Of a stretch of DNA of 64,000 bases, positions 390-33,972 are shown one piece after another; positions within the stretch are counted from its first letter, which is position 1; every line of letters begins with the position of its first letter. This stretch comes from a virus, in the IMG/VR virus record IMGVR_UViG_3300045391_006216, positions 1 to 64,000 of that record. One strand, given 5' to 3'. The notes beneath the pieces are model-generated. The model was not told where the DNA came from and ran no database searches. It saw nothing but the letters and a program-made list of their open reading frames with translations. A program made the position numbers and the translations under genes.

Positions 390-454
390 GAATCAGGGTT
401 TGAGGGTTGCATCTGGCAACCTAGTTGCCAGATAGGGATCTGAAACCCTCATTC
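390..454. repeat. About 65-bp nested palindromic element, related to the copies at 43317-43457
   Basis: Outer arms GAATCAGGGTTT / AAACCCTCATTC; inner hairpin ATCTGGCAAC-cta-GTTGCCAGAT. Confidence 0.8.
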
Positions 455-5100: not shown

Positions 5101-5650
5101 ACAGTTCATTAAATTTACGCTGCAAAAATTCCGGCAGCAATAACCGATAAAACTCCGGATTTGCTGGATTAATACCTAGACTTAGTTCTGGTTGAATTTT
5201 GTGACGGTCAAGGACTTCTAACGCAGTAATAGTCTTGATTTTTGTTACATCTAAAGGCTCTGAAGCATTTTTACCGTCGTTGACGACGATTACAATCACT
5301 GCACCACCGTAGATATTGGCTTGGATTTGAGCTTCGTGAAAACTTTCTTTGACCTTTAATTTATCGTGATATTTAGTAAATTTAGAAATTATTTTTTGGT
5401 CTGATTTTTCACCGCCCAAAGTTAAATGCCATCCCTTTAGCACGGCGCTATCCGCCCTTGCCCTAACCACTCTCCGGCAAATGGGGACTTTATATAGTTC
5501 TTCTAAATCTTGTTTGGGAATTTTGTAACTTCTACCAACTGTAGTGTGTTCGGAGCGATCGCCACTAGTCCCCATTTGAGTAATCAAATTGACTAAAGCC
5601 GCGTCTAGCCGAATATCGTCGTCTTCAAGTAAAAAAGGATTTGCATTCAT
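2135..5650 (-). CDS. Portal protein (DUF1073-like) with about 700 aa of C-terminal cargo domains
   Basis: Portal motifs IHASRIIRFDG, WGGSVL, GIPHDRLFGESPSGLGATGE; then a HYGA.GY...SPNYWARK.LW domain, a Cys tag, an InPase-like domain (EYG...DGKALDFYLG...DEDK.FIGF) and a zincin (HEMGH at 2564-2578 ... ETFARAYSQY). Confidence 0.88.
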   Translation of the reverse strand: MNANPFLLEDDDIRLDAALVNLITQMGTSGDRSEHTTVGRSYKIPKQDLEELYKVPICRRVVRARADSAVLKGWHLTLGGEKSDQKIISKFTKYHDKLKVKESFHEAQIQANIYGGAVIVIVVNDGKNASEPLDVTKIKTITALEVLDRHKIQPELSLGINPANPEFYRLLLPEFLQRKFNELFPNQGTDFKIHASRIIRFDGVSYTPDMLSYNEGWGGSVLELLWEDYRDWKTALKALGAMLHDCSVFVYKLKGLAQMIKAQDEMLLKSRLRLMRMMISVFGGFAADADGENIEFPSRTFAGVDQVATQLRDAFIGSTGIPHDRLFGESPSGLGATGESEEKNWASDVASFQQTEWKPKLKDFGRLIFLAKDGPTAGKEPEDWDYEFPSLLQQSETEIVSARSSQSSIDNTYLATGVLLPEEVRASRFGGSKYSIETVLDEKLFSKKQQEAQQQQFGGFEGFGEEELPPDEQPAPEEATNQDSERYDALYSELPKDEQGRVRYLGKWWQPNKPIASSRQDKKRMVLAKVGDRVKLVHYGAEGYQHNYSEQAKKNYLTRSAGIKDKSGNLTKNDPFSPNYWARKDLWNKKLPADGSTLYQGKKGGGSGKPCGDGFIPGNKECHQDAADPPKKIVNWNGLSIGITHEVGDTRFPLARPMVAEYGHLRRSYGSAPDGKALDFYLGENLESPNVFKIRQLDPQTGMLDEDKYFIGFEDAASARDCFTYHAGRDRFGGIEKVNPSELQVYRKDNCAISEPQLNTGVRIFDSKLLTNNPPDNHQILGIVTSTFPEQVLGLGDWKYKADGTVDGEFYSTLGVYGFGIKNNYCGYSWKRELNSEGRRQRAEGRRNEDIQASSFVEDSDPVRPGYTWVNDKTVKGGGYFRKGEAQKPEPVEHKIKVKSQEEFDESGPGLAIADDLLEADSEREAQIRGALINVMAESVDTALNSIKQVHSLEGLPQFDIELQNDKQHPGDYGGMVSIGRTDATGNKSFRLGGFNLNIAALEASLASGKNMSEAKSLVGLTTVHEMGHTLDLTALGSSSDRFATTDMNLDGTTNPNTADPQLTSLVSTLENSQGIARIRQTTDAATNPQIKAYGEYLLSPHETFARAYSQYIAIKSGDENLRQYINEYGISSKRGGGRFGNGHWDEAEFRSTIEPEFDRVFREKGWLKDA
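3110..3141. repeat. Heptamer tandem repeat (CTGCCCT/CTGCCTT) in frame inside the portal gene
   Basis: cttctgccctctgccctctgccttctgcctt encodes EGRRQRAEGRR. Confidence 0.7.
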
Positions 5651-18100: not shown

Positions 18101-21050
18101 TGCCAAAACTTGTTTCTAGCGAAGTAACAACAGTATTAAAAATTGGCGTTAGCTTGGTAACAATTGCCCTAGCACTATCAACGGCTTCATTAAAAAATTT
18201 ACCAAATCCGCCTCTACCATTTGCACCTATGCCGACTAAAGCACTATTAATCAGTCCAGTTAAAGTTCTAACTGCACTAGGCACAACCGTATCTATAGCA
18301 TTGATGGTATTACGCAATCCAACGCTTAATCCAGACTGAATATTCCTTGCAGTGCCACTACTAAAAGCAGAAACCGCAGCGATGGCTCCTTGTAGCTTGT
18401 TACCAAAATCAATAAATAATCCGCTTGAATTTGCTACTTTGGTTTGGATAAACGATAAACTAGTATCTGCAATTAACTTTAAATCTGTAAATCTATCACG
18501 GACAAATTGTATTTGTGTAGCAAAGGTTGTTCCAAAACTAGTAGATGTTTGAAGAGTATTTAAAAACGCATCTATGTTAGAAAATCCTTGCCCTAAAGAA
18601 GTTCTTAAACTACTAATTGAACTAGCAATTTGAGCAACTATACTAGGAATTGCAGATTTAATAGAGTCTATTCCTCTAGACGTAAATATTAATAATGATT
18701 GAATGTTTCTATTTGCAATTGCAACGCCAGAGCTAACAGTGTTAAAAACACTTGTAATACCAAGTTTGATATTAGGAATTATATTTTGAGAAAAATTGTT
18801 AAGCCCTTGCAAGAAGTTACGAACATTATCAATGCCACCAATAGTAAAGCCTAAACTTGTGTTGGCGATCGCTTTGATTTTTGCTTGCAAAAACCCTATT
18901 GCTTGAATAGCTTTTTGAATGCCTTCTTGTAAAGCGTCAATTATGCTATCTCCAATAGTAGTACCTCTCAAGCTTTGAAGTGCAATGGAAGCATCAAGCA
19001 AAGTGTTAACAATATTTGCAGATATTTGGTCAATACCGTAGTTAAAATTCATTACAAAATCAATAGCATCTATTTTTAATCCAGTCAATCCTGCATCTGC
19101 ACTAGTTACTAAAGAATTAATCAACGATTGAGTGTTACCAAGAATATTGGGAATTCCTGCGACTCCACTTTTAAACCCACGTAACAGGGTATCAGTTAAT
19201 TTTAACCCGGCGTTAACATTAGTTTTTAAATTTCCAAGCACTCCATCTAAAGCAGCAAAATTAGATTTTAAATTTGCAGGTTTGAGATTTTCCAACAAAG
19301 CATCAAATACAAATCCCGGCGCTCCACTTTCTAGTAAACTGGTTTTAACAACATTTTTTAAATATCCGGGTAAAAATGCTGTTGCGGCAGAAGCTATAGC
19401 ATTAGCTCCTGCATCCTTGAAACGCTTAGTTACATAGTTGGCAGCACTGTCAACCAAAGGAGCTAAAATTACAGGTAATTGTGTATCAATGGCTTTCCCC
19501 AAACTTGCGGCTACTGCCCTACCTAAAATTGCATCAAGCTGCTTTAATCCAGGGATTTGGCCTTTAATACCTGTAACTTTAAAAAGTTGTTGAATAATGC
19601 CGTCAAAATCCAGCAGTTGATCAACAATTGCGCCAGGTACAGGGACAAAAGAAGTAATCAAATTTTTAATCTGGTCGTTTATAAGCCCTGATAGCACCCC
19701 TCCTCTAGAACTACTTAATAAAGGTAAATTGCTAGTTCCAAGTCCTAGACCTGCGGTAAATTTTGCCCCTACACCATCAAAAGTACTACCCAAAATTTCA
19801 CGGCTTCTTTGATTACGTTTTTTAATTTCTGGGTCGAGTCCATCGAATAATCGATTGGCTAATCTAACTCCTGAATTGTAAGCTACATTTTCTACAGAAG
19901 TATTAGTTAAATTAAATAGATTTCCTAATGGTGCTGATATACCTTTTTGAGTAACTTTTAATAAAGCATCGCTAAAAGAACCATTTAATAAATCTTGAAT
20001 TGAAGAAGAAAGCACACTTTTAACAGCAGAATTTTTCAGAATACTTTTAACCAATCCAGTGGAAACATTGTTACCTAGAACTTGTCCAATTCGCTGATCG
20101 ATTACAAAATTTGCTATTTGAGAATCTAATTTAGCAAAGCCACTAGTTGTCTCAATTTTTAAATTTGCTAGTACTTCTATTTGATTTTTCAATCCACTTT
20201 GGTTTAATAAATCAGCGAGTGGCTTGAATTGTGAACTTTTAATTTGTTGAGAGATATCAAGTAGTAAACTATCAATTGCACCTGCCGTAGAACCAGTAAG
20301 TAAAGATTTAAGAAAAGTAGGAGAATATTGTGCGATCGCTGGGTTAGTAGCAATATTTTTAATAATATCTTGACTTGTACCTTCGCCAATTGCTAACCCA
20401 AAAGTAGCATCAATAATACTTTGTGATAATTGCTTGTCTAATCTCTGAGCTATTTTACCAACAATTTTTAACCCTTCATTGTCAAAAGTTCCCAGAGCAT
20501 TTTTTAAAGGATTAAAAACTTTTTCGCCAATACGTCCAACACCTAGACTAATGCCATCATCTAGTTGTTGAGAAATACTACGAGTATCAAGGTTAAATAA
20601 TTTTTGACTAAACCCAGCACCAATATTAGTCCCAACAGAACTAACTTCTTTAAGTAAACTACTAAGAGGCGCTAATTCTTTGGTCGCTTCTTCAGCAGAT
20701 TGTTGTATTTGCCCAATAAAAGTTTGACCAATTGGCGACTGAATACCTTCTTTAATTTTACCAACTACTGAAGTTAATCCAACAAGTTTAGAGATTGCGC
20801 CTCCCAAAGCGCCAGTAGTTGCTACACCCAATCCAATGATAGCTACACTAGTGTCAGTTACCTTAACTCTAGTTAAATCTGCATAGTTAATGACAAATTG
20901 TAACGCCTGTCCAGTTCCAATTAAAGATTTAGAAAGTATCGCGGTTTCTTTATTTAGATTATTAAAAGAAATACCAGTTTTTTTAATTACATCACTGGCA
21001 ACATCTTTGGCTTCTATAACTACTTGAACTTTATTATTTGATGTTGCCAT
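12177..21050 (-). CDS. Tape-measure-like protein, 2957 aa
   Basis: N-terminal V.VVIEAKD.AS; long A/G/L/I amphipathic region; central tape-measure-like segment (EIGSILSG.IDQNS.LAK.L); hydrophobic segments; C-terminal coiled coil. Confidence 0.8.
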   Translation of the reverse strand: MATSNNKVQVVIEAKDVASDVIKKTGISFNNLNKETAILSKSLIGTGQALQFVINYADLTRVKVTDTSVAIIGLGVATTGALGGAISKLVGLTSVVGKIKEGIQSPIGQTFIGQIQQSAEEATKELAPLSSLLKEVSSVGTNIGAGFSQKLFNLDTRSISQQLDDGISLGVGRIGEKVFNPLKNALGTFDNEGLKIVGKIAQRLDKQLSQSIIDATFGLAIGEGTSQDIIKNIATNPAIAQYSPTFLKSLLTGSTAGAIDSLLLDISQQIKSSQFKPLADLLNQSGLKNQIEVLANLKIETTSGFAKLDSQIANFVIDQRIGQVLGNNVSTGLVKSILKNSAVKSVLSSSIQDLLNGSFSDALLKVTQKGISAPLGNLFNLTNTSVENVAYNSGVRLANRLFDGLDPEIKKRNQRSREILGSTFDGVGAKFTAGLGLGTSNLPLLSSSRGGVLSGLINDQIKNLITSFVPVPGAIVDQLLDFDGIIQQLFKVTGIKGQIPGLKQLDAILGRAVAASLGKAIDTQLPVILAPLVDSAANYVTKRFKDAGANAIASAATAFLPGYLKNVVKTSLLESGAPGFVFDALLENLKPANLKSNFAALDGVLGNLKTNVNAGLKLTDTLLRGFKSGVAGIPNILGNTQSLINSLVTSADAGLTGLKIDAIDFVMNFNYGIDQISANIVNTLLDASIALQSLRGTTIGDSIIDALQEGIQKAIQAIGFLQAKIKAIANTSLGFTIGGIDNVRNFLQGLNNFSQNIIPNIKLGITSVFNTVSSGVAIANRNIQSLLIFTSRGIDSIKSAIPSIVAQIASSISSLRTSLGQGFSNIDAFLNTLQTSTSFGTTFATQIQFVRDRFTDLKLIADTSLSFIQTKVANSSGLFIDFGNKLQGAIAAVSAFSSGTARNIQSGLSVGLRNTINAIDTVVPSAVRTLTGLINSALVGIGANGRGGFGKFFNEAVDSARAIVTKLTPIFNTVVTSLETSFGNVVNFIRRTFGSVAGVVATNLGKIIGSILKIDLNFTELPPGLAERINGLFGGVFSSLFGRIGQNANRAFLAGFFGAGFERVSPAIDAIDKSAIRIYNTLSTLPSKIAAPLNTIAQFPGAIAGFNEPLKVFGYLQNTIAGFANGISSVVERVAFFSQGLSSLQQFATTGPFKTLIGQNIELREQLLSTQSSLVATSKIYSGFTGQQIIDPKTAIQSLEDPIKTAIDKLRLESLDLVGVTSKDLVPLYQQIAGQITGIGGKLTDAKDLSLDFAASLGTLQIPLYQSRQEIGSILSGTIDQNSVLAKSLNISNEQVNNWKSQGRLVEELRKKLAPFRAGNALAAASFSGVISNIQEVFDEIGRRAGERLLDPLIEQVTSVYDYLKTNQEQFVTYFGLISDQILRVGLAVVDAAKTVFSSVGGLIAEAPIYLFKSLANAAEALAGGIKFVAEALGPAIRFMTELVKASGPLGGVFLQSFVTVKALSVGVTTLGDVFGTLTQLVPGLGEVMFALDLRTNGVANQFINLSKVLGTGGGGFLILGKYLNEIPGAAEAATVALGPLGGLLVGFIPTVAGVGIQVAGLITLFPAIGAFLSNLLTLTPALITAAGAFVSSNIYLAPLAPLFTQAANAVGLYANATDRVLLLNQQFAAVLKNIGTAIAGQILTFGLLAGGAYLAFLAFDKFVLQNETVKEILYGVIQGLGSLADMLKIAFGNPFALATTAVVGLTIAINVGLIPSIAKLISTTLAGWAVNLAGILAGLATTLSAVGFVGLAASASSAAIGVRALGIAMTQGTVASAQFLAANGITVSSLFGLTAATGGATVGLATFATALYTAIAPLLLLAAPLIALAAAIGLIGIGLYSLQLKDANEATEILGDRTAKLSEQAIKTARDLKKASDIQSDADKRGVRLSDEQYKANQKLVAQAKEQKTQLSSQLADLQDQLKTVKGDANKANIQSQIDELNARIKLIDSFVGNIKIKPKDLERVGSGYEQLAKQAAGAEEAILKSSGDSAIFKQKAEELLSATEKQAEAGQISADEAIRRYNLVATNAFASQELQDKAQQGITAAFKRESDKRISIVQAQQSAISAQLALGRVDYEQNAKAISDAQNSLLKSRLDAENELHQTKLKQIQKEFDDQTFVNNSLLKQKQDEAAKLSAQGQDASAPLAQAETLKAKIIQIEKDKNAALISENTRNTRISSELSSQIAENEISANLVAADLRIKVNKGIISQELAAEKQLTFAKKVELETQLRNTNDNYSERRKIIERDFANTTKYLEDEIAKKQSEASKAPANSPALAAAQSDISALNTKLINSNKAKTASLLLLEQNYKTEVTKINADIQKNQADSAEKESAIQIKILERNQKKALDAVQIAQNERLIQIQQLENKGLLDRTEVEEKKTQASKVNIDAQLNQERLRLKALQALPKPKNQEKAADFDAQIRASQLKIQDLVKQSLSAELTLYKQHIEVIKSQIKDEDNIRETQLESQARKGLVTQAQVNEELARRKVSALEKEYNLETRDASKRIELALAIEKAKTALLDAEIKTRQEKLEVENQKLKNQIDEQNQSIKRQGDLYQILTKAIEQRNKLLEVSRDLAKAGTDFVLGELEVLSSVERSEYRRKQLAEVTASIKLQSLRQQQEYERQSLLNQLEQNKLALEQEAIQNRINQGQKLADIAGVKADIAVMEADPRNQSVAGQAKIKALQIKLQSEVDALGFLQAEGGLISQKFQGQQTQAQAQLEQLNLKQNLDTLKARAELANALPPGKQQQSQRQLQQEIAQLFGQKNIREFYNAAIAQSRGIAAKEFPISSTPDILAAISPNLGGILDMVGGQAATAAIGDATKTFDKEYGNTANITGALTTGIAKTPLQTPLEVQRAQSLSQQILGQVNQPISLVQDASLKLPAPSERTATLSLESSGKLFKQGVDKLVDYLKPLTNQANNTYNIKIDAPTQNLAATGSGSNVSLEKVLDYAKQMAGAY

Positions 21051-21053
21051 AAA

Positions 21054-24000
21054 TTATTTATTTTTGATTAGATTAGATAAATTTTGTTGAATACTTTTGA
21101 CTGTATCTGATATCTTTTCAGGAGATTCAGCAACAAAATCTGAGAAGTCGATTAATTTTTCATCTACTGTCTTTAAAGTTTTAGAAACTGTACCTTGCCC
21201 TAAAAATACACCTAGCAATTTAGCTTCATGGGCTAGCGTTTCTTTAATCTTTTCTTTACGGGTCAGTTGTTGTTTTTTAGTTAAATTACGATGCCCTTGT
21301 TTAACCAGTCTAGATGTCCTCAGATATGCTCTTTCTAAATCTTGTCCTAATCCACCAATGGTTTGAGACACAGCACCTCTACCAAGTTTTGCAGATATTT
21401 TTCTAGGATCGAATTCTTTAATACGACATTTACGACCAACTGGTAGGCAAATATCACCGCAAGGATTTCCGGTTTTACATTTTTTAATGAAATCAAGATG
21501 TATAAGTTCTTTTTCTAATCTATAAGCTTCTGAGTCTAATTTAGACGTATTCAACTTTTGTTCTAAAACTTGAATCAATTTGTCAGTATTTCTGTAGTTA
21601 TTTTCTATGTTTGTAATTGTTGAATACTTTTTCAATAAATTCCAATCTCCTTTCTCATGCTTGAAATAAGAAATGTACCTACTTTTAATTTCGTCAACAG
21701 TATGTTCGCTGCGGAGTTTTTTAAGAGTTTTTAAGTATTGCGATAAAGCGTTGCGTTCTGACAAACTAATTTGTCCAACATCTAAGTTTTTAAAATTATC
21801 TAGAGTTTTTGAGGATAGGTTTCGCGTAAAAGCTAATCCATTATCTATGCCATTAAATGAATTTGTTCTAGAGTCATATATTAAATTTTCAGACTTCCTA
21901 TCCCAATTGCCAATAAAAGTGTCAAATGCTGCGATTTTAGGTAGGTCTGAATGTTTTGATAAACCTAAAAGCATTGCTGGAGTTAAGCCCGACTGCTGCT
22001 TGATATTAAGATTTTCAAAAGCAGAATTTGAATTAGTTTTTAATTCAGCTAATGTTTTTCCGGGAACGATGGAGTGCAAGGATGCCCCAGCAAATCTTGT
22101 TTTTAATGGAGATTTAAGGTTTGCTGGAATTAAAGAAACTTTATTGATATTAATGCTTGATTTTTGAGCAATATCAGAAGCAGTAGCTTCTGAAGCCGCT
22201 TCTAAAAGGTGGAAGTTGTGCCTCACTTCTTTGAAAACAAATCTTTTGTTGCTAGCATCTTTAACAAATAAAGCCTTACCAATTGCTCCTTGTTTCGGAG
22301 AAGTACCATCTGGTTTTAATTTGTTGAGATATTTTTGATTGACAATTTGTAGCTGATTATCTGCAAGTAACGGAACGTCAAATTTAGTACCTAAATATAT
22401 AGCAGCGATCGCACCTGCACCTCCCACAGTTCCAATTGCTGCTGCCGTCGTTGTACCAGTAATTGCGGCATTTATGTGGCAGGTATTGGCTTTTGGAATA
22501 CAAATTTCGCCGCAGTTTTTAGTATCTGTGGAACATTGCGGAGTTTTATCTGAGTCTTTGCGCTTCCCAATTCTGCGTCTTACTTCTTCAGGGGAGCCTT
22601 GATAATATCCAAAAGCCTCTCGGATGGCATCCCTAACTCTCTCATCGCTCAAATAATCCCTAGCAGAACCGCCTGCAACAGAGCTAATCCATTGTTGCCT
22701 TGCGCCTTCTCCAAAAGTAGGAAGAATTGATATTGGGTCTTGGGGACTAATAATGGTGCGCTGTCGGCGAGATACATTTTCTGCAAATCCAAAATGTGGA
22801 GTTCCTAGATAAACAGCATTTACTTGCTCCATTACTTTTTTCCCGGATGGACTGCCTTTAAGTTCCATACGAGAAAGAATTTCTAGAGCCTCTTTAGTTA
22901 CCAGTCCCCCATTGCAGTGGGCCACTATATTGATTTTTTTGCTTCTGTTGACCAAAGTTTTGCCATCTTGGGGAGAAATGGCGATCGCATGAGCATAGAT
23001 AGAAGCGGCCAAATCAACCGCATCTTGATTGCGCTTGCGAGCAAAATTTTGGATTATGCCACCCACGCCATTAACCACAGTACTGGCGATTCCTGGTTCT
23101 CCGCCTCCTTCAGGTTGGGGTGTACCAAATTCTTTCAAATTAAAAGGAATCACGTAATTGCTATGGGTTAACCAGTAGTCTTTGGCATTGTCCGCGTTCT
23201 TTTCGCGTTGTAGCAACGATTTCATTTCTTCTGCGCCGTAGCCTTTACCAGACCCAATAGCAAAAGTGATGTTGTCTTGGTTGATGCGTGAAGTCATCCT
23301 TGGTTTGCCATTGGGTAACAAACTAGGTTCGCCGTCCCGTTCAAGTGGGTGTTGCAAATTCAGTTTGCTAGCTTGTTCTTCAGCCATCCTTGCCGATTCA
23401 TTAAATCCTTCACGATAACTTTGTTTCGCCTGTTCGTAGCCCTTGATGGTTCTACCGATGAGAAACGCGCCAACAGCAGCTGCGCTCCAAGAAACAGGGG
23501 AAGTGCTTGCAAATTTAGCCAACGCCTCTAGCTTGCGCCAAACGTCGGCAGTATTTTTGAGCGATCGCTTAGTAGAACGCTCTAGCGGCGTACCTCTACC
23601 CGATAATCCGGCAGACGCAATTGCCTTTGTACTGAATCCAGTACGCTTTGAAATACCACGGGTAATTTTGTCCCGTGATTCTGGTTTTTGATCATAGAGT
23701 TGCAATGTACCTTGTAACTCTTTAATAGTCATTGACCCGTAACCATAGATTCTTTTTTCTTGAGCTTGCTTCCTTAATTCGCGGATGGTGTAGGGAATTC
23801 CAGTTTGTGGGTTAACAATGTATTTGGATTTTACTGGTATGTCATTATTTTCAGGATTTTGAGGTATTGACGCGATCGCTTGGTTTTGTTCAAGTTTGAA
23901 TTGAACTATTGATTGTTTGAGTCTAGCTATTTCGTTAGGCGTTGCAATTTGATTAATTGACAACTTACAGGTATCATTAGCTTCGATGCAAGTATCACCA

Positions 24001-27000
24001 CAACTTATGCCCTTACGGCACTTTTTTTTTAAAATTTTTCTATCTTGTCTATAATAACTATCTAATTTAGCAGAATTTCTACTTAATTTATAAGTGAATT
24101 TATTATCTTTAAATGTAAATTCTAGGATTTTACCAAGACTATCTTGAGCTAATCCAATCACATTGTTATCTAGAGTGATTTTTATACCACCGACTTTAAC
24201 AATTGGCTTACCATAACTCCTAGATAATAATATTGAGAATTGATTTTTGATTTGTTGAAGATTATCATCAGATGAATCTTTAGATACGCGAGATGATTCT
24301 ATATTTTTATTTCGATCAAAATGTTTTATCAGAACTTCTTTAACACTTTCATTTGGAACAGATTCATTAAATATATTACTAGAAACTCCTTTCTTCCAAA
24401 CTCCATTTTCATCGTATAATTTATATGGTGTATTGGAAAAATAACCCATGTGTCCAACCACATTTACAGGTACTTTATTAGGCATTGTTGCCCCATAAAT
24501 TTTATCTACAGGGTCTTTTTTGGGGTCAATTAAACTAATTCCAGATGGAGAAGTTAGCCCAAAATATGGACTACCTGCTGTAACAACTCTAATATCTTTA
24601 ACACCTATTTTTTTAAGGATTTCTTCTGCTTCCCTCACTGGCATTCCTCCGCCAGATTGACCAATTAAATTGATAGGTAATCCAGGGTGTTTTTGATGAT
24701 AAGCATAAGCACGAGCAGCAATTCTCACAGCTACTTCACTTCTACCTTTTGTTAGGTTGTCTTTCAACAAAGCCGAGACAACTTTTTTTAAATATCTAGG
24801 ACTAGCAACAGTATCACCTTGAGCAAAAGAAACTTCTTGCTCTGGAGTTTCAATACCTACAACATGATGGTCGGATAACATTTTGGCAACTTGCAATCCC
24901 ATGTGGTCACCTTCAAGTCCATCCACTGCACCTATCCCACCTGCAAAAAAAGTTATTTGGTGTGCTGGTTTTCCTGTGTTTACACTTGTTACATCGGATT
25001 TAATAGAACTACCAGGCAATTGTTGATCGCTTATTGACCTGAATCCGGTAAAAGTAGTATTAGGAACTTTATAGGTCTTGGCTTGTTCTTTGGCTAGCTC
25101 CGCTGAATTTGAAAACCCTGCTTTAAACCTTGCTTTTTGGATTAAATAGGCCGCTGTTGGTATTCCCATAATTGCAGCACCAGCAGCTATTCCAGACCCG
25201 ATAGCTAACTGATTGCTTGGGTTTTGACTTAATTTAAGATTATTATTTTCTACCTTACAAGTAGACGTTTTAGGAATACAAATATCACCGCAATTATGTC
25301 CAATTTTACATTTAGCTTTATCTATTCTAAATACTGAATCTGCCTTTTTCTGCCCAAAAACTAACCTTTGCATTTGCTGTTGATTAGTAACGGATAGTTT
25401 TCTTCTGATAGTTGCATTTTCTCGAATAGCATTGCTTTTTCCGTAAAAAAATCCTCTAGCTTCTTCGTAAGTCTGGTCTAGTTGTCCATATCCTCGATAG
25501 CCTTTTTTGTAATCATCACCCGCAGGATTTTCAAGCCAGTTATGAACGCTAGGAACATTGAGTGGTTGAAAATTTTGTACCGGAAGTACCATCATTTTAT
25601 CAACTGGTAAAACCCGTTTAATCCCTTCATGGAACTCCTGAGATGCAGTTTTTTCATCAGAAGTATCTTTGTCTTTAGATTGCAATTTTTCCCTAGAACC
25701 AATTGTAACCAATTCATCTTTTTTTAATTCTGTCAATCCAAAATAAGGAGTAGCAATCAAAAATCCCTTAGATTTTATATTTTTTTGTTTTAAGATTTCC
25801 ATTGCTTCTGCTGCAACTATACCACCACCAGAATGCCCAATAAAATGAATGTCTTTATCAGGAAATAATCGTTTATACATCATGGCATGAGCCGCAGCAT
25901 CTATAGCATCAGCATTATTTAGTTTTTGTGTAGCATTATCATAGAGCATTTGAAGGTCAGACTTATACCTAATCAATTCCCTAGCTACAGGTTCTATAGA
26001 TTTATATTGTTCTGAAGTCCGGAGTTTATTATCTCTAAAATCGTTCCAATTTTCCTTACCAACTACATTACCCATAAAGTCATCAAATCCACGGCGACTT
26101 AGATATCCCCGCTTAACTTTTCCACCTTTACCATCATCATCTAATTCCTGTGCCATAATGTCATTCATAGGCAACCAAGTCATTTCAGGTGTAATATTAA
26201 CTTTTTTATTAGTTAAAGGAATTAAACTATGATTTGGCAAATCTGAAGCCATTTGATTTGCTAAACCAAATCCTAATTCTCCATAATCATTAAATCCACC
26301 AATAGTAAAGCCAATACTAGGACGTTTGGGGTCTACAGCATAAACACTGCTACGAGTGACGTTACCTTGAGCATCCCATTTATCAGCTTTAACAATTGCT
26401 GTTTTTTGAGTGTTGGTTAACTTTTCAGGAGGAATATTTAATTTTTTGGATATTTCTTCAGTCATTTGTTTCTCTAAAGCAAAACTTTGAATTTCTGCTT
26501 TTTCTGCTGAAGCTTTAAATCCTTCTCTGTATCTATTACGAAATCCTAAATATGCAGATGCCGGAATTCCAATTAACGCTGCTCCTGCGGCTACAGGGGT
26601 TATCAACCCAATTGCCAGTCCAAGTCCTAAGCTTGTTTTGATTTCTTGGTTATCGTTACTGGGAGATTTAATCGACAAATTTAATCCACTACGGCATTTT
26701 AATTTTGCAGATATATATCCTTTGCCACAGGGCTTACCATCAGCTTTATCTCGACGAATAGAACTTAGTCTTTGTTTGATGAATTCGCGGAAACTACTGT
26801 CTGCAAAATAACTATTTTGTCCGTGGTCTAAAACATTATCAAAATTTTTACCATTAACTCCTCGACCAGTAGTCATTTTAAGGATACCGTCGTGTTTGCT
26901 AACAGCAGTTACTAAATCCCCAGTTCCAGGAATTAATCCAACATCCGGAGAGCCAATAGCAGTAGTTCTCATCTTGATTCCTGCTTTGTGCAGTATTTCG

Positions 27001-27707
27001 TGTGCTTCTTGCACAACTAATCCACCGCCAGAATGCCCCATCAATTGATATTGTTTTTCTGGATAAACTTTTTTTGTGGCAATAATTTTAGCAGCAACAG
27101 ATACAGCGACAGGGTTGTAACCTTTCTCAAAAACTGTTTTGATAAATAAATTTTTAGCTTCTTGTTGTGCTTGTTTTTTAGTAGCTTCGTCTACAGGACG
27201 GGTAGGAACATTAAATTCTGCATAAGATTGAGGTTCTACGTAAAGTCCTTTTATCTCCAAAGATTCAATGTTTTTTCTTAAAACTTCACTTTCTGAGTAA
27301 GCATCTTTAGTACCAAATCCACCTACAGTTAAAATAACCGTCTCAACTTCTTTACCTAAAGTAGGCGCTTTAATATTTTTAGATTCAACTTCAGCACGAA
27401 CAGCGCTAACAGCAAAATTCTCTTGATATCTTTTTCTGGCTTGGTACAACGTCGCTGCCCCAAAAACACCCAAGCCGGCTGCGATCGCAGCCGCACCTAA
27501 TGTTGCTCCAATGGCAACACCACCAGTAACATAGCCTGCTTTATTTTCAGTGGTAGTTTTAGGATTTTTTAGTGTGGCAGATTTAGTTGAGCTAATATTG
27601 CATTTATGCTCTTGAGAAATACAGGTTTCACCGCATAATTTACCTGTATTGCATTTAATAGAATCAAAAACTAATTTCTTTGATTCTAGGTATTCAATTG
27701 ATGACAT
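21054..27707 (-). CDS. 2217-aa modular polyprotein: 6 Cys tags, 4 alpha/beta hydrolases, a HipA/PI3K-like kinase and a Rho-N-like helix motif
   Basis: GHSGGG (about 27030), GHSGGG (about 25830), GQSGGG (about 24655), AHCNGG (about 22915); FDTFIGNWDRKSEN...GIDNGLAF kinase motifs; a hydrophobic Gly/Ala helix precedes each enzyme. Confidence 0.85.
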   Translation of the reverse strand: MSSIEYLESKKLVFDSIKCNTGKLCGETCISQEHKCNISSTKSATLKNPKTTTENKAGYVTGGVAIGATLGAAAIAAGLGVFGAATLYQARKRYQENFAVSAVRAEVESKNIKAPTLGKEVETVILTVGGFGTKDAYSESEVLRKNIESLEIKGLYVEPQSYAEFNVPTRPVDEATKKQAQQEAKNLFIKTVFEKGYNPVAVSVAAKIIATKKVYPEKQYQLMGHSGGGLVVQEAHEILHKAGIKMRTTAIGSPDVGLIPGTGDLVTAVSKHDGILKMTTGRGVNGKNFDNVLDHGQNSYFADSSFREFIKQRLSSIRRDKADGKPCGKGYISAKLKCRSGLNLSIKSPSNDNQEIKTSLGLGLAIGLITPVAAGAALIGIPASAYLGFRNRYREGFKASAEKAEIQSFALEKQMTEEISKKLNIPPEKLTNTQKTAIVKADKWDAQGNVTRSSVYAVDPKRPSIGFTIGGFNDYGELGFGLANQMASDLPNHSLIPLTNKKVNITPEMTWLPMNDIMAQELDDDGKGGKVKRGYLSRRGFDDFMGNVVGKENWNDFRDNKLRTSEQYKSIEPVARELIRYKSDLQMLYDNATQKLNNADAIDAAAHAMMYKRLFPDKDIHFIGHSGGGIVAAEAMEILKQKNIKSKGFLIATPYFGLTELKKDELVTIGSREKLQSKDKDTSDEKTASQEFHEGIKRVLPVDKMMVLPVQNFQPLNVPSVHNWLENPAGDDYKKGYRGYGQLDQTYEEARGFFYGKSNAIRENATIRRKLSVTNQQQMQRLVFGQKKADSVFRIDKAKCKIGHNCGDICIPKTSTCKVENNNLKLSQNPSNQLAIGSGIAAGAAIMGIPTAAYLIQKARFKAGFSNSAELAKEQAKTYKVPNTTFTGFRSISDQQLPGSSIKSDVTSVNTGKPAHQITFFAGGIGAVDGLEGDHMGLQVAKMLSDHHVVGIETPEQEVSFAQGDTVASPRYLKKVVSALLKDNLTKGRSEVAVRIAARAYAYHQKHPGLPINLIGQSGGGMPVREAEEILKKIGVKDIRVVTAGSPYFGLTSPSGISLIDPKKDPVDKIYGATMPNKVPVNVVGHMGYFSNTPYKLYDENGVWKKGVSSNIFNESVPNESVKEVLIKHFDRNKNIESSRVSKDSSDDNLQQIKNQFSILLSRSYGKPIVKVGGIKITLDNNVIGLAQDSLGKILEFTFKDNKFTYKLSRNSAKLDSYYRQDRKILKKKCRKGISCGDTCIEANDTCKLSINQIATPNEIARLKQSIVQFKLEQNQAIASIPQNPENNDIPVKSKYIVNPQTGIPYTIRELRKQAQEKRIYGYGSMTIKELQGTLQLYDQKPESRDKITRGISKRTGFSTKAIASAGLSGRGTPLERSTKRSLKNTADVWRKLEALAKFASTSPVSWSAAAVGAFLIGRTIKGYEQAKQSYREGFNESARMAEEQASKLNLQHPLERDGEPSLLPNGKPRMTSRINQDNITFAIGSGKGYGAEEMKSLLQREKNADNAKDYWLTHSNYVIPFNLKEFGTPQPEGGGEPGIASTVVNGVGGIIQNFARKRNQDAVDLAASIYAHAIAISPQDGKTLVNRSKKINIVAHCNGGLVTKEALEILSRMELKGSPSGKKVMEQVNAVYLGTPHFGFAENVSRRQRTIISPQDPISILPTFGEGARQQWISSVAGGSARDYLSDERVRDAIREAFGYYQGSPEEVRRRIGKRKDSDKTPQCSTDTKNCGEICIPKANTCHINAAITGTTTAAAIGTVGGAGAIAAIYLGTKFDVPLLADNQLQIVNQKYLNKLKPDGTSPKQGAIGKALFVKDASNKRFVFKEVRHNFHLLEAASEATASDIAQKSSININKVSLIPANLKSPLKTRFAGASLHSIVPGKTLAELKTNSNSAFENLNIKQQSGLTPAMLLGLSKHSDLPKIAAFDTFIGNWDRKSENLIYDSRTNSFNGIDNGLAFTRNLSSKTLDNFKNLDVGQISLSERNALSQYLKTLKKLRSEHTVDEIKSRYISYFKHEKGDWNLLKKYSTITNIENNYRNTDKLIQVLEQKLNTSKLDSEAYRLEKELIHLDFIKKCKTGNPCGDICLPVGRKCRIKEFDPRKISAKLGRGAVSQTIGGLGQDLERAYLRTSRLVKQGHRNLTKKQQLTRKEKIKETLAHEAKLLGVFLGQGTVSKTLKTVDEKLIDFSDFVAESPEKISDTVKSIQQNLSNLIKNK

Positions 27708-27718
27708 CAGTTTTCTCT

Positions 27719-28669
27719 CTATTTTTTAGGAGGTCTACCACGCTTTGGTTTGGATGAAGTTTTTGCAGGAGGTAAGCTAGGTGGTGGAACTGGCGTAACT
27801 GTAACTTGCCGAGGTTTAGGAGCTTGTTTTTGTGGATTTGGAGGATTTATTGGCGTAGCTTCTGACTGATTAGTAGTCTTTTTACCAAAAAATGTTTCAC
27901 TGATATTTCTAGCTTTTCTTGTAGTAGTCTTAGCACTATTCTTAGCAGTGGTTTTGATATCTTCCCCAGCTGCTTTTAAGTTGCGCCCAATTGCTCTAGA
28001 CGCATTTTCAGCCCCCGCCACCGTAAGTTCTTTAGCAGTTTCAAATCCTGCCTTGAGGCTCATCTTAGCTCCTGATAAACCTGTTTTTAATTCATCACGC
28101 CCTTCTGTCCCTGCACGCTTTAGTCTTTCGGCAACTGCTTTACCACCTCTTGCTAGATTTTTACGGTTTGCATAAGCTAATCCTCCCGCAGCAGTAGCTC
28201 CAGCGGCTAAGGCAACACCACCAGCAACACCACCAGCAAGAGCAAGTCCACTACCACTTTTGAGCTTGCCTGTGCCCCCACTCCCACCACCATGTTTACG
28301 ACAAACAGAACCTTTGGGCAGGCAAATTTTACCGCACGGCGTACCTCCTTTAGTACACCTAACTTGAGCATCAAGATTTAACATGCCAAAAGTGTATTCA
28401 ACAGGGAAATCACTATCTGTCTTTATGCCATACCCGGCAAGTAAACCTTGGGCATATTCATTTAATTCTGCGGTTTCTTCTTCATGATGTAGAACGCCTA
28501 TATTTTCATCATCGAAAGCATAAGTGTAAAAATCTCCAGAACTTAATAAATTTCCATATATCACCCCATTTTCATCTTCATTTGCAGTTAATACTTGTAC
28601 GGGCGCATCAAATTCTTCTACAATAATCTCCCCAATAGCTTTGTTTCTTTCTGCAATTTGATTAACCAT
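27719..28669 (-). CDS. Cys-tag protein with a hydrophobic helix and a basic/Pro-rich tail
   Basis: CTKGGTPCGKICLPKGSVC; GLALAGGVAGGVALAAG; C-terminal KRGRPPKK (AT-hook-like). Confidence 0.8.
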   Translation of the reverse strand: MVNQIAERNKAIGEIIVEEFDAPVQVLTANEDENGVIYGNLLSSGDFYTYAFDDENIGVLHHEEETAELNEYAQGLLAGYGIKTDSDFPVEYTFGMLNLDAQVRCTKGGTPCGKICLPKGSVCRKHGGGSGGTGKLKSGSGLALAGGVAGGVALAAGATAAGGLAYANRKNLARGGKAVAERLKRAGTEGRDELKTGLSGAKMSLKAGFETAKELTVAGAENASRAIGRNLKAAGEDIKTTAKNSAKTTTRKARNISETFFGKKTTNQSEATPINPPNPQKQAPKPRQVTVTPVPPPSLPPAKTSSKPKRGRPPKK

Positions 28670-28676
28670 AAAACTC

Positions 28677-29348
28677 CTAATTGATGACTGTTCGTAAATA
28701 CTGCATCCCTAGTTTTGATGCTGTTCTTTTAATCACTTCGTGGTGATAGTCTGCTTCTGCTTCATCTATTCTTTTTTTACCTGTAATAATTTGTGTTAAA
28801 TATTCTTTATAAACCTGTTTTTCATATTGTTTATAAGTCGGTTTGACACGCGATCGCCAATAATTTTCATTCCATCCAGTTGGAGGTGGCTTGAGTGAAT
28901 GGCGATAACTGCTAGACACTGCCCTAATCTCTGCCATGTTCACTCTACAAGCAACTTCAACATCTGAAGCCGAAAAACTTAACCCCTTGCTTCTAGCGTC
29001 ATTTTCGCTCCACCCTAAATTGGGGTGATTGTGAGTAACAACCGCACCTCGCATTTGTTGTAAATCTTGAGAAGATAAGTAAACACTGGTTGAATCACCT
29101 CCTTTAGAAACAAGTATTTTACCAGTGGTTGGATGAAAAGCAATGGCTTTCTCTTTTGGTAAGTCTTTAATTTGGTTTTCTACTTTCTCAACAAGAGCGT
29201 TTAACTCTTGAGAATTTAAACGGCATTTATGAATTTTGGGAATGCAAGCTTCCCCGCACCGCTTTGATTTGTTGCTGCACTTGGGATTGAGGTTTTTTAT
29301 ATCCTGGCGAACTTGGAGGTAAGTTTTGACTCTTGTTAGTGCTAGCAT
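28677..29348 (-). CDS. Cys-tag protein with a JAB/MPN-like metalloenzyme domain
   Basis: CSNKSKRCGEACIPKIHKC, then E.A...G..L...G...SV...THNHP...SFSASD. Confidence 0.75.
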   Translation of the reverse strand: MLALTRVKTYLQVRQDIKNLNPKCSNKSKRCGEACIPKIHKCRLNSQELNALVEKVENQIKDLPKEKAIAFHPTTGKILVSKGGDSTSVYLSSQDLQQMRGAVVTHNHPNLGWSENDARSKGLSFSASDVEVACRVNMAEIRAVSSSYRHSLKPPPTGWNENYWRSRVKPTYKQYEKQVYKEYLTQIITGKKRIDEAEADYHHEVIKRTASKLGMQYLRTVIN

Positions 29349-30746: not shown

Positions 30747-30836
30747 GGTATTGGGTGTTAGGTATTGGGTGTTAGGTATTGGGTATTAGGTATTGGGTAT
30801 TGGGTGTTGGGTATTGGGTGTTGGGTATTGGGTATT
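30747..30836. repeat. STRR-like heptamer tandem repeat (GGT[A/G]TT[G/A]) of about 13 units
   Basis: Direct reading; typical of filamentous cyanobacteria. Confidence 0.9.
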
Positions 30837-31761
30837 AGATGCCAATCATGACGTGGCAGCTGTAGCGGCGATAAACCACTAAACCAGCAAACTTGAAAGA
30901 ATAGGCACGATACACCTTAAAAGGGCCAACAGGTTGTAGTGGGCGTGGACGAAAAGCATCGGTGATTCTTGCTTTGAAACAATTGGGGTCGCGCTTATAA
31001 AAGATTGCCAAGTCTTCGCCATTGGGGCCAGCTTGTTCCAATTCAGCAAGTGGTTCGATATTCTTGATACTAGGGTTATTCTCTAAGAAAAAACGCAAGA
31101 CACTTTTTTCTTGGAAATCATTGAGTCGCAATTGAGACATTAAAAAGTCGTAGCGGCGCTCGGATAAAAGTAATGTATCGGGAGCCATTACTTTATTGGT
31201 GGCATTCTTCATACCTTGGACGCCAGCATTTAAAGTCGCAAGTATGGAATTGGCAGAAGTAACGCTGCCATCTAATTTATAAGGTGCTATTGAACGCAAC
31301 CAAGCTGGGTGATTAATAAAACCAGGATTGCCAGTTTTTTTGTCGCCAACTAGCAATAGTTTGTTCATTGTCTCAGTGTAAGCTTGCTGAACAAGAGAGA
31401 TTTTTTGTTCCTCAATTGGTATACCACGGTGTAATGTAGCTGCTATTTCATCTTCATCAAAATAATAACCAGAGCGATATCTAAAAGTACGTTGGTAGTA
31501 CTCATCGCCTACCATATCTACATAAGGTAAATTAGTAGTATCCCCAGTATCTAGCTCAAATGAGCCTACTCCGTCAATACTAGTAAAACTAGTAGTTTGT
31601 GCCCAAGGCGCGTTAATTTCTTCTATTTGAAATAACTTTCCTGAAGCTGCCTTATATTCTGGCAGCATTCGTTTCATCACTTCTGTTTCTTTTAATTCTA
31701 GTTGTTGCTCAAATGCCCCTACAGTTGGAGCATCTAAGCGAATTTGCGATGAAATTCCCAT
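30835..31761 (-). CDS. Major capsid protein (DUF2184-like, HK97 fold)
   Basis: 308 aa; LP.VD, Y....EI, N..LL.GD....PG.IN.P, PDTLLL, AG..G.D.AI.Y, AG...YR; synteny with protease and decoration genes. Confidence 0.85.
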   Translation of the reverse strand: MGISSQIRLDAPTVGAFEQQLELKETEVMKRMLPEYKAASGKLFQIEEINAPWAQTTSFTSIDGVGSFELDTGDTTNLPYVDMVGDEYYQRTFRYRSGYYFDEDEIAATLHRGIPIEEQKISLVQQAYTETMNKLLLVGDKKTGNPGFINHPAWLRSIAPYKLDGSVTSANSILATLNAGVQGMKNATNKVMAPDTLLLSERRYDFLMSQLRLNDFQEKSVLRFFLENNPSIKNIEPLAELEQAGPNGEDLAIFYKRDPNCFKARITDAFRPRPLQPVGPFKVYRAYSFKFAGLVVYRRYSCHVMIGI

Positions 31762-31779
31762 TTATTTTTAATTCCTAAA

Positions 31780-32646
31780 TTAAAGTTTAATATCGACTAA
31801 GGCAATATTTCTGCCGAAAGATTGTTGAGCGGCGGAAATGATTTTGATGTTGCTGCCAGCTGCTAAATTTCCGCTAGAAGTTTTGGTAATTTTACCTTCA
31901 TTACCTGCCGCAACTGCAATGTAAGGTGTGTCACCAATCGCTAAATCTGCATCAACTGTTTCTACCCAAACACCTTTATAAGTACCAATATTTTTTAAAA
32001 CATTCATTACAGTATCAAAGGCATATCCGTCTTTAGCAGCAGAAAAACGCCCTACTTTTTGGGTATATTGAGACGAAAGAGTTACACCTAAAACTTCGTA
32101 GCCAGAGGTGGCATCAATTAAAGTTGCTTGACTTACACCTTCTAAAGGATCGCGGGTATAAGTTGATTTCCGTCCTACAAATCGGCCAAAGGGAATAATT
32201 GCATTACTTGAAGTACTGACTGTTTTAGCGATCGCAATATCGTTGGTTGTATCAGCACTATTAGTGGTAACAAGAAGAGGAAGGTCTACAGTGCGTGCAG
32301 TCAGAGTAATAACAGAAGTACCAGTATTTAAGGCAACATCAACCAAACCATAAACAACTGGGTCTTGTTGAATTGCTGCATATAATCCAGAACCCAATTC
32401 CGCAGTTGTGGCGTTAGCATCGGTGATAAAACTGACGGTTGTGCCATTGATGGTAACTTTGTATTCTTTGGAGTTATCTACAGTAGCAGGAGGCGTAATT
32501 GTCACCGTATCAAAAGTTGCCACGCTATTAATGTGTGGCAAAATAGTGCAACTACCAAATCCAGACAACATGCCAGGTAGACCCGTTGGCATGTAGCGAG
32601 AAAAGTTTGTTTGCCCAGTAATGGCGGTATTAGATGAAAATGTCAC
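31780..32646 (-). CDS. Head decoration/cement protein with an inserted beta domain
   Basis: G.PGML, IPFGRFV, VLK..G.VWV; lies between protease and capsid. Confidence 0.75.
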   Translation of the reverse strand: MTFSSNTAITGQTNFSRYMPTGLPGMLSGFGSCTILPHINSVATFDTVTITPPATVDNSKEYKVTINGTTVSFITDANATTAELGSGLYAAIQQDPVVYGLVDVALNTGTSVITLTARTVDLPLLVTTNSADTTNDIAIAKTVSTSSNAIIPFGRFVGRKSTYTRDPLEGVSQATLIDATSGYEVLGVTLSSQYTQKVGRFSAAKDGYAFDTVMNVLKNIGTYKGVWVETVDADLAIGDTPYIAVAAGNEGKITKTSSGNLAAGSNIKIISAAQQSFGRNIALVDIKL

Positions 32647-32655
32647 TTTTTTGAA

Positions 32656-33972
32656 TTACCTACTTAAAGACAAAGGTTCTTGCCAAGCACTAGCTAATGA
32701 TTGAGCGCGTTCGTTTTGACGAGTTTCAGCTATTGAAGCACTTGGAATTCTTGCAATTTTAATCATGTCTTGCAGCGTGCTATCTGTATGTGGTTCTTCT
32801 TCCTCATCTTCTAATGAACTTTGTAAATGCATAGCATCAAAAAGCCCCTCCACCCAACCAGAAGAATAACCACTCAAATCTGTTTCAGGCAATAGTTCTT
32901 GTAAAGTTGAACGCCTGATTAAATCTGCATCTAAACCGTCAGAATCAAATCTTGAATCGTCAAAATTTTCACCTAATAACACTTCGGCTTTTCTTAAGGC
33001 AGAGACAATTTGAGCTACTGAATCAGTTTTTTTAGTTTTGCGTTTGGAAGGGAGTTGCTCTTCTTGTTCTTCTTGATTGTCGTCTTCTTCATCTTCAGGT
33101 TCTTCCTCCCATTCCTCATCAGGCATAGTTTTTTTGGATTTCTTACTTGCTGTAAATTCAGCAGAATCAGAATTCCAGGTATATCCTTGTTCTTCAAGAA
33201 TAGGGATGGCAGAATCAACAACTTCTTGATAAGCATCAGCGCGACCCATGAGGCGATCGCGTTCTTCTTCTAGTTGTTTTATTTGAGATTCAAGACTATC
33301 AAGTTTTAACTTCGCTTTTTCATATTCACTGATTTTTGCCCCAACTACGGAAGCAAAAATTTCTGGAATTTCGTCATAACTAACACTATCAATAGTTACT
33401 CTTGCCATAGGTTTTTTAAATTCTTGAACTTCAAAACCAACATCTTTATCCCCTAAGTCGCTATCAAAATGAATTGCAACTTCTTCACCAGCTCTACCTT
33501 TTCGAGTAATAGCAATGTGGTTAATTTCTAAATCTGTCTGAATTGCGTCGTATTTTTCACCTTTCCATACACCAGGACAATGAATAATATTGCATTTATA
33601 ACCAGCAGAAATTTGTACGGATTCTCTATCGCTAATGCTTTTTACAGTTTCGCTGTCAAGAACCGTAATTACTCCTCTTACGAAACCATTTTCATAAACA
33701 ACTGTGGAATCAGTTAACCCAACAGAATATTGCTTGGCGTTTTGGGAATTGATTAGTTCGCGTGGATGCTCAAAGGAAATTGGCTTTAGCCCAAAACTGG
33801 TTAAAGCTTGCTTGTTTGCTTCGGGAGTTCTCAACTCGCGGCGAATTGTGCCATCGAGATTACGATATTGCAAAACACCGTCTTTAGCAAAAGTTGCTTC
33901 AGCACGAAAATATCCTTCCGGCGTAAACTCATGTTTTTTTGTTGTTGTTCCGGCATCAAACCTAATCGCCAC
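32656..33972 (-). CDS. Prohead protease/scaffold (DUF2213-like)
   Basis: TPEGY, G...Y, LTSF..KP...EHP, ISAGY, G.W.G..YDAIQ....NHIAI..KGRAG; acidic coiled-coil C-terminus. Confidence 0.9.
   Translation of the reverse strand: MAIRFDAGTTTKKHEFTPEGYFRAEATFAKDGVLQYRNLDGTIRRELRTPEANKQALTSFGLKPISFEHPRELINSQNAKQYSVGLTDSTVVYENGFVRGVITVLDSETVKSISDRESVQISAGYKCNIIHCPGVWKGEKYDAIQTDLEINHIAITRKGRAGEEVAIHFDSDLGDKDVGFEVQEFKKPMARVTIDSVSYDEIPEIFASVVGAKISEYEKAKLKLDSLESQIKQLEEERDRLMGRADAYQEVVDSAIPILEEQGYTWNSDSAEFTASKKSKKTMPDEEWEEEPEDEEDDNQEEQEEQLPSKRKTKKTDSVAQIVSALRKAEVLLGENFDDSRFDSDGLDADLIRRSTLQELLPETDLSGYSSGWVEGLFDAMHLQSSLEDEEEEPHTDSTLQDMIKIARIPSASIAETRQNERAQSLASAWQEPLSLSR

Follow-up and report, generated by a model that had tools for sequence, protein, structure and literature searches.

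A 64,000-nucleotide stretch of viral DNA (positions 1 to 64,000 of IMG/VR virus record IMGVR_UViG_3300045391_006216; hereafter the window) represents a cyanophage-like element whose nearest cultured relatives are CL131 (Aphanizomenon) and PaV-LD (Planktothrix). It encodes a 438-amino-acid (aa) protein, the protease-scaffold, in which a DUF2213 domain is followed by a scaffold part. Our observations as a whole are probably best explained if this protein is a prohead protease that cuts after Asp, trims the head proteins and separates the modules of large cargo proteins. Within that reading, Asp-specific cleavage of the capsid protein and the scaffold is very likely, and we regard cleavage of the cargo modules, suggested by the placement of sites, as an even proposition or slightly better. 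An original prediction, made from the letters of this DNA, had proposed such a protease from [K/R/H]-x-D-[S/A] sites that recur in head and cargo proteins. Its central claim, that a DUF2213-like head protease cleaves after Asp, is well supported by the fold, by a family-wide preference of the motif for Asp over Glu and by mature capsid N-termini in relatives.

Residues 15-168 of the protease-scaffold score 111.9 bits with the PF09979 (DUF2213) profile, whose gathering threshold is 22; phrog_530, ‘head maturation protease’, is a further match of the protein (E 3e-72). An AlphaFold2 model built on an alignment of 74 homologues had a mean predicted local distance difference test score of 83, rising above 90 over residues 11-170. 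The N-terminal domain of the model superimposed on T4 gp21 (5jbl) over 129 residues (Z 12.0, root-mean-square deviation 2.5 Å) and matched eight herpesvirus protease entries at Z 8-9.8. A Foldseek search with the whole 438-residue model returned no match at E 1e-3 or better, the same proteins ranking top at E about 1e-3; a PDB sequence search with the protease returned solely Pa193 gp24 and coiled-coil noise, and detected no sequence similarity to herpesvirus assemblin. Invariant columns among the 74 sequences are D6, G20, G32, Y36, G41, E46, R48, H69, G85, S122, G124, Y125, G134, Q145, N151, H152, R160, G162 and D170. His69, Ser122 and His152 follow the His-Ser-His order of assemblin and are the most evident candidate residues for a catalytic triad like that of assemblin. 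Because the protein combines a protease fold with an invariant His/Ser/His set, we take it to be the head protease; its identification as a prohead serine protease with the T4 gp21/herpesvirus assemblin fold is well supported by the model, and its proteolytic activity is predicted. Two arginines of the protease domain, Arg48 and Arg160, are also invariant, and either could make the S1 pocket positively charged and so selective for Asp.

The protease fold is exactly bracketed by two invariant aspartates, Asp6 (R-F-D/A) and Asp170 (H-F-D/S), the slash marking the predicted cut. Model confidence is low at residues 1-10 and 172-185, which fits the expectation for exposed linear sites. Among homologues, the leader before the N-terminal motif varies in length, and the scaffold part is otherwise poorly conserved, with a mean column identity of 24%.

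A full scan identified 9373 representatives of the family at 50% identity (E 1e-3 or better). Motif statistics were compiled for the region C-terminal to the protease domain, using 148 representatives that are 340 residues or longer and come from 50%-identity clusters; as homologous sequences share descent, the resulting numbers are counts and not independent trials. These scaffold parts contain 775 occurrences of [KRH]xD[SA] where 119 were expected (6.5-fold), with a median of 5 per protein and three or more in 127 of the 148, whereas the Glu version, [KRH]xE[SA], is depleted (70 versus 117 expected). The most over-represented dipeptide is DS (635 versus 290, z 20), and FD and LD are enriched too. 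When the residue at P1 was left free in [RKH]-hydrophobic-x-[SA], it was Asp in 405 of 568 occurrences (6.6-fold), with Glu at 0.3-fold. When P1’ was not pre-selected after [RKH]-hydrophobic-D, Ser was favoured 4.4-fold, Gly 3.3-fold and Ala 2.2-fold, all other residues lying at or below background. R, H and K are preferred at P3 of these family sites, and L, F, M and Y at P2. Since [KRH]xE[SA] is depleted, a T4-like specificity for Glu was rejected. The proposed motif is enriched as defined, and its restriction to Ser or Ala at P1’ is too narrow: Gly is also favoured, and some sites next to the cysteine tags described below have K, R, F or I there. On these sequence counts, the motif is refined to a usually hydrophobic P2 (L/F/M/Y), with Gly accepted at P1’. 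Neither the Asp rule nor any cleavage specificity for the family was found in the literature searched, a scope that left out subscription journals.

The same rule can be read at the N-terminus of the major capsid protein, where relatives supply experimental anchors. An alignment of 33 capsid sequences shows no exception to Asp10 and hardly any to Arg8, and in all 44 capsid homologues that are full-length and extend to the N-terminus, R/K-x-D follows a leader of 2-10 residues whose sequence varies. R-[LMF]-D, preceded by leaders of differing length, is kept by 46 capsid homologues. A MAFFT alignment places the window’s Asp10 in one column with the corresponding Asp of CL131 and four IMG/VR relatives, with T1 Asp26 and with TLS Asp32. 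The mature TLS capsid N-terminus, obtained by Edman sequencing, is ASDMGIW (PMC11447400), and in TLS gp36 (L003:15072-16061) this sequence stands directly after K-N-D32. The TLS authors surmise a loss of 45 residues, with the cut at a conserved A-Y-E triplet (PMC11447400); because ASDMGIW follows K-N-D32 of the annotated protein, we conclude that 32 annotated residues are removed and that the cut falls after Asp. TLS gp33 is homologous to the window’s protease-scaffold, T1-like records being among the tblastn matches at E 1e-9 to 1e-17. For T1, the cryo-electron microscopy model of the capsid protein gp47 comprises residues 27-319 (PMC11945409), and the sequence there is K-Q-D26/A27, so that the model starts directly after Asp26.

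A similar correspondence is found in PB1-like phages. The capsid models of E217 and Pa193 begin at residue 66 of 382, and their authors leave cleavage of residues 1-65 open (PMC10329688, PMC11456595). The PB1 capsid protein, identical in length, reads A-M-D64/S65-N66, which puts the start of the model one residue past the predicted cut; the PB1 portal has A-M-D76/S, and the PB1 protease-scaffold has R-A-M-D/S, A-A-D/S, A-Q-D/S and others. The family profile also matches Pa193 gp24 (E 1.6e-23), a protein described as putative scaffolding in a paper that does not speak of a protease. The residue at which the Pam3 capsid model starts is not stated in the main text of the Pam3 paper. The mapped or modelled mature capsid N-termini of TLS, T1 and E217/Pa193 fit cleavage after the aligned Asp. 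Of the capsid homologues (P0022-P0046 included), about one third have R-L-D-D or R-L-D-E, not R-L-D-A, and an acidic P1’ is disfavoured in scaffold sites; either the cutting rules would be looser for the capsid, or specificity would differ between lineages.

Within the window, all motifs listed in the original prediction were found. Counts of [KRH]-x-D-[SA] were compared with expectations from shuffles, the chance rate being about 1 per 1000 residues. The 438-aa protease-scaffold has 8 matches versus 0.8 expected. All claimed substrates together have 23 versus 6.6 (Poisson p 5e-7), and 15 versus 5.8 once the scaffold protein is subtracted (p 1e-3), whereas the 13 versus 8.6 in non-virion proteins is not significant. 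A 2957-aa tape-measure-like protein, with 5 matches versus 2.5 expected, shows no enrichment, and since it also has no cysteine tag it serves as an internal negative control. The motif was not found in the cement protein or the small connector proteins. Some matches were rejected as cut sites because they are probably fold elements: KYDA140 lies within the protease fold, with Y141 and D142 nearly invariant in a beta-strand; HRDS332 of MuF falls within the core of that protein and is not shared by a free-standing homologue (locus L011); and RADS65 and RFDG200 of the portal lie inside the portal domain. SKDS1142 of the 2217-aa cargo protein was set aside too, having neither a basic P3 nor an adjoining tag.

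A motif this short and loose might be a functionless product of chance or composition, for instance a by-product of charged coiled coils, and in the large cargo proteins taken alone the excess is modest (5 versus 2.7 expected). Such an origin is scarcely credible, however, given the 6.5-fold enrichment over 148 diverse scaffolds with depletion of the Glu analogue, the invariance of Asp6, Asp170 and capsid Asp10, and the exact coincidence of the motif with experimental N-termini.

The evidence on cargo concerns where the sites stand. There are ten cysteine (Cys) tags in the window, with the pattern C..CGxxC[IL]..C or a shorter one with two Cys: six in the 2217-aa protein and one each in MuF, the portal, a 316-aa protein and a 223-aa protein. 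Leaders ending in R/K-x-D stand before tags in the cargo proteins. In the 2217-aa protein a site precedes every one of the six tags, at a distance of 3-21 residues, and five of the eight strict matches in this protein lie no more than 25 residues upstream of one of these tags (binomial p 7e-5). Over the window, CL131 and related IMG/VR loci, [KRH]xD is found within 35 residues upstream of 64 of 69 unique tags, compared with 30% for control positions chosen at random in these proteins, and 57 of the 64 sites have Arg at P3. A more distant group, its capsid protein 35% identical, has many paralogous cargo proteins built like the window’s 316-aa protein: a leader domain of about 80-120 residues is followed by R-x-D-S, a further 15 residues or so, R-x-D-A, a basic linker, the tag and a variable enzyme. 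In each of two IMG/VR loci (L016 and L022), at least five paralogous cargo genes of this layout, with a conserved leader domain and differing C-terminal domains, lie downstream of the capsid gene, and some neighbouring genes begin directly at the tag, leaderless.

Counterparts of these proteins are virion components in CL131. Liquid chromatography-tandem mass spectrometry of CL131 virions, reported as a protein-level table, detected the portal together with the proteins that correspond to the 223-aa, 316-aa and 2217-aa proteins (Table S5, PMC6293099). ORF048 (open reading frame 048), the counterpart of the 2217-aa protein, is in the virion, and ORF045, that of the 316-aa protein, is abundant in virions. 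The window proteins have the layout of phage polyvalent proteins: a portal with InPase and zincin domains, MuF with a ParB-like insert, and the 2217-aa protein with hydrolase and HipA-like modules.

Fusion joints in MuF offer a comparison between extended and free-standing forms of one protein. Residues 258-372 of the window MuF match Phage_Mu_F (Pfam), and the core starts at 205/206. The free-standing 249-aa MuF of L011 aligns to window residues 206-431, beginning with the residue that follows R-T-D204/A205. Of the 57 MuF homologues, some 30 stand alone and have their Met start at that very joint, and each of the 25 with N-terminal extensions (14-529 residues) has [R/K/N]-x-D-[A/S] exactly at it. 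In Nostoc linckia MuF the tandem sites R-G-D/S...R-T-D/A have nothing between them, in the place where the window protein has a tag and a ParB-like module; that this insert is flanked by two sites agrees with the original prediction. Homologues extended at the C-terminus have R-T-D/S or R-A-D/R ahead of the tag. Four cyanobacterial MuF homologues (P0310, P0320, P0335 and P0354) have Hint_2/Intein_splicing Pfam matches in a long C-terminal extension, suggestive of an intein that lies within the MuF core or immediately follows it.

The portal has Phage_portal_3 at residues 49-410, InPase at 631-746 and a weak LPD1 match, and its C-terminus carries an HEMGH motif of the HExxH zincin type. The CL131 portal keeps I-R-Y-D/A, Y-R-A-D/A and K-Y-D/A at the N-terminal, post-portal and pre-InPase sites of the window protein, with no tag there. 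Mapped against module joints, the motif coincides with them at the six tags of the 2217-aa protein, at 25 of 25 MuF joints and at the portal junctions in CL131. The CL131 portal, gp012 (L041:3801-7982, 1393 aa), contains the MuF-core motif W-V-H-R-D-S-V-V near residue 1063, so portal and MuF appear fused in CL131; in the window they are two genes with a 94-aa ORF between them.

The zincin raises the question of whether another enzyme processes the cargo, be it the portal’s own zincin, autoproteolysis or a host protease acting after ejection, with the Asp motif unrelated. The HEMGH motif and the weak LPD1 match at the portal C-terminus would suit the first of these, and Iyer et al. proposed MPTase-mediated processing of polyvalent proteins (PMC5512222). 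We nonetheless rate this explanation as improbable, because the motif at cargo joints is the one enriched in scaffolds and cut in T1/TLS capsid proteins, and because T1-like and PB1-like phages have the motif without a zincin; a zincin would also leave the 25 of 25 MuF fusions with R/K-x-D-A/S unexplained.

A more substantial alternative, though still an unlikely one, is that capsid and scaffold are cut after Asp while R-x-D in cargo, MuF and portal is an uncleaved recognition or targeting element and the polyproteins stay intact. The element could dock onto the protease-scaffold, which would thereby bring cargo into the prohead, or it could cap the Cys hairpin at its N-terminal end. The Asp sites nearest the tags are often non-canonical at P1’ (K, R, F, I), most tags have their first Cys only 3-11 residues away from the Asp, and N4 vRNAP, a polyvalent protein, is packaged unprocessed (PMC5512222). 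A fixed element sits less well, however, with a spacing from Asp to first Cys that varies over 3-25 residues through low-complexity basic linkers, with sites upstream of all six tags in the 2217-aa protein, with MuF joints that hold the motif where free-standing genes start, tag or no tag, and with the pre-InPase site kept in the tagless CL131 portal. The non-canonical sites could be poorer or slower sites, or parts of an uncut recognition element.

Returning to cleavage of the cargo, the original prediction had individual effectors released inside the prohead. Sites at module junctions, next to tags and at MuF fusion joints make this plausible. As these observations are positional, we infer cargo cleavage in this phage, and the location of the cargo inside the head is likewise putative. 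Under this reading the protease would cut inside the assembled prohead, after Asp in [R/K/H]-[L/F/M/Y or other]-D/[S/A/G]. It would trim itself at Asp6, free itself from the scaffold at Asp170 and cut the scaffold into pieces of 20-70 residues. The capsid protein would lose a leader of 10 residues and the portal one of 16; MuF would be split into an N-domain, the tag-ParB insert and the core; the C-terminal domain train of the portal would be separated; and in the 316-aa and 2217-aa proteins, the leader and the enzyme modules headed by a tag would come apart.

A bolder version, which we hold tentatively and put somewhat short of even, is that the phage uses its capsid-maturation protease as RNA viruses use a polyprotein protease: cargo would be loaded via leaders, cut at R/K-x-D/S/A/G and ejected with the DNA as enzymes capped by Cys hairpins. 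The polyprotein cargo would then comprise four lipase-like modules and one kinase-like module in the 2217-aa protein, together with the portal and MuF domain trains. The motif may also act as an evolutionary plug-in socket, new modules being inserted between tandem sites as in MuF.

Several observations weigh against cleavage as set out here. The N-terminal site of the protease itself takes almost any residue at P1’, ahead of a conserved Gly, and D, E or T follows the Asp in many capsid homologues, as K, R, F or I does in several tag-nearest sites. Two scaffold sites, Asp225 and Asp246, fall within a predicted long helix (residues 204-261). The homologue counts lack phylogenetic independence. 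The portal has its own HExxH zincin, the type that Iyer et al. (PMC5512222) proposed as processor of polyvalent proteins. The 2217-aa gene adjoins the tape-measure-like gene, a tail-module position, and CL131 virion mass spectrometry does not separate head from tail.

On the minus strand the genes run in the order protease-scaffold, cement, capsid, three small connector-like genes, and those for the 223-aa, 316-aa, 2217-aa and 2957-aa proteins (Table 1). The order protease-scaffold/cement/capsid recurs in CL131 and IMG/VR relatives. No Pfam match at E 0.01 or better was found for the 2957-aa protein; the CL131 tape measure protein has 2131 aa.

Table 1. Genes, predicted cut sites and related features in the window; the slash marks the predicted cut, and motif names as first listed are in parentheses
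Feature	Position	Strand	Remark
Protease-scaffold (438 aa)	32656-33972	-	Pfam DUF2213, phrog_530; directly upstream of cement and capsid genes
Predicted mature protease domain, residues 7-170	33463-33954	-	bracketed by invariant Asp6 and Asp170
Candidate triad His69; Ser122; His152	33766-33768; 33607-33609; 33517-33519	-	invariant in 74 sequences
RFD6/A, protease N-terminal site	33952-33963	-	Asp6 invariant, Arg4 nearly so
HFD170/S (HFDS168), protease/scaffold junction	33460-33471	-	Asp170 invariant; edge of disordered 172-185
Scaffold part, five further sites	32779-33306	-	
Scaffold site KLD225/S (KLDS223)	33295-33306	-	inside predicted long helix 204-261
Scaffold site RAD246/A (RADA244)	33232-33243	-	inside predicted long helix 204-261
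Scaffold site KTD317/S (KTDS315)	33019-33030	-	loop or disorder edge in model
Scaffold site RFD343/S (RFDS341)	32941-32952	-	loop or disorder edge; Asp343 nearly invariant
Scaffold site HTD397/S (HTDS395)	32779-32790	-	loop or disorder edge in model
Cement protein	31780-32646	-	between protease-scaffold and capsid genes
Major capsid protein (308 aa)	30835-31761	-	PF09950
Capsid site RLD10/A	31729-31740	-	predicted mature N-terminus Ala11
Portal (1171 aa)	2135-5650	-	C-terminal cargo domains; left end of window
Portal site RLD16/A	5600-5611	-	N-terminal
Portal site RYD488/A (RYDA486)	4184-4195	-	post-portal junction
Portal site HQD625/A (HQDA623)	3773-3784	-	pre-InPase junction
MuF (438 aa)	449-1765	-	left end of window
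MuF site KTD77/S (KTDS75)	1532-1543	-	flanks Cys tag and ParB-like insert
MuF site RTD204/A (RTDA202)	1151-1162	-	flanks Cys tag and ParB-like insert
2217-aa cargo protein	21054-27707	-	weak alpha/beta-hydrolase and HipA-like Pfam matches
2217-aa site VFD/S (VFDS13)	27660-27671	-	
2217-aa site KAD/G	26736-26747	-	
2217-aa site KAD/S (KADS788)	25335-25346	-	
2217-aa site KLD/S (KLDS1214)	24057-24068	-	
2217-aa site RKD/S (RKDS1716)	22551-22562	-	
2217-aa site KLD/S (KLDS2056)	21531-21542	-	
316-aa protein	27719-28669	-	N-terminal leader domain, double site, Cys tag
316-aa site KTD85/S (KTDS83)	28412-28423	-	before Cys tag; double site also in relatives
316-aa site NLD100/A (NLDA98)	28367-28378	-	before Cys tag
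223-aa protein	28677-29348	-	16-residue leader, then Cys tag
223-aa site RQD16/I	29298-29309	-	non-canonical P1’; ends 16-residue leader; RAD/F at same place in CL131 gp044
2957-aa tape-measure-like protein	12177-21050	-	position of the tape measure gene of CL131

The DUF2213 family is very large and includes T1-like phages, PB1-like therapeutic Pseudomonas phages and many phages of Vibrio, Klebsiella and Acinetobacter. The Asp rule gives this little-studied protease family a testable cutting rule. It would predict where mature proteins begin and end, as an aid to structure building and mass spectrometry, would recast Pa193 gp24 as a protease-scaffold and would add Asp as a third P1 specificity to the Glu and Ala known for the fold. 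If the cargo part is true, it accounts both for the splitting of phage polyvalent proteins into working enzymes and for the addition of new modules without disturbing assembly.

In T4, gp21 cuts at [L/I]-x-E, and phiKZ gp175 and SPN3US gp245 cut at S/A/G-x-E. T4 and phiKZ use one short motif across capsid, scaffold or core, portal-proximal and internal ejected proteins, and clip N-terminal leaders. The window protease shares the fold of T4 gp21 and this one-motif logic, its motif recurring above chance in scaffold, capsid and other head proteins as in maturation of the T4/phiKZ type. It differs in having Asp and not Glu at P1, a basic P3, a scaffold very densely set with sites and a protease fused to that scaffold, and its putative substrates include multi-module polyproteins, unlike the single small internal proteins of T4 and phiKZ. 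Herpesvirus assemblin, which cleaves Ala/Ser, has the same fold and His...Ser...His order and is likewise an N-terminal protease fused to a scaffold, freeing itself at the junction (here predicted at Asp170). In contrast to assemblin, the cut is predicted between Asp and Ser, Ala or Gly, and the window scaffold has far more sites.

In the T1-like group, T1 gp50 and TLS gp33 are homologous protease-scaffold fusions that share with the window protein an N-terminal Q-R-F-D-S and many K-x-D-[SAG] sites in the scaffold. Their capsid proteins (T1 gp47, TLS gp36) are also homologous, with the mature N-terminus at the aligned Asp, although T1 and TLS remove 26-32 residues compared with the 10-residue leader of the window capsid. 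T1-like phages have neither Cys-tagged cargo polyproteins nor portal and MuF domain trains, and the Asp rule is unstated in the T1 and TLS papers (PMC11945409, PMC11447400). In PB1-like phages (PB1 gp22, Pa193 gp24, E217), sites of the A-M-D/S type are common to PB1 capsid, portal and scaffold, with Ala at P3 in place of Arg, Lys or His and a capsid leader of 64 residues; the Pa193 and E217 papers mention no protease and leave cleavage of the capsid and ‘scaffolding’ proteins open (PMC11456595, PMC10329688).

Polyvalent proteins (PMC5512222) are, like the window’s portal, MuF and cargo proteins, multi-domain and MuF- or portal-linked, with InPase, ParB-like, zincin and LPD1 domains, and the counterparts in the relative CL131 are virion-borne. 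Hydrolase modules headed by a Cys tag are not among the domains listed in PMC5512222, where cysteine is unmentioned. Whereas processing by an internal zincin (MPTase) was proposed for polyvalent proteins (PMC5512222), the joints in the window are marked by the motif of the head protease.

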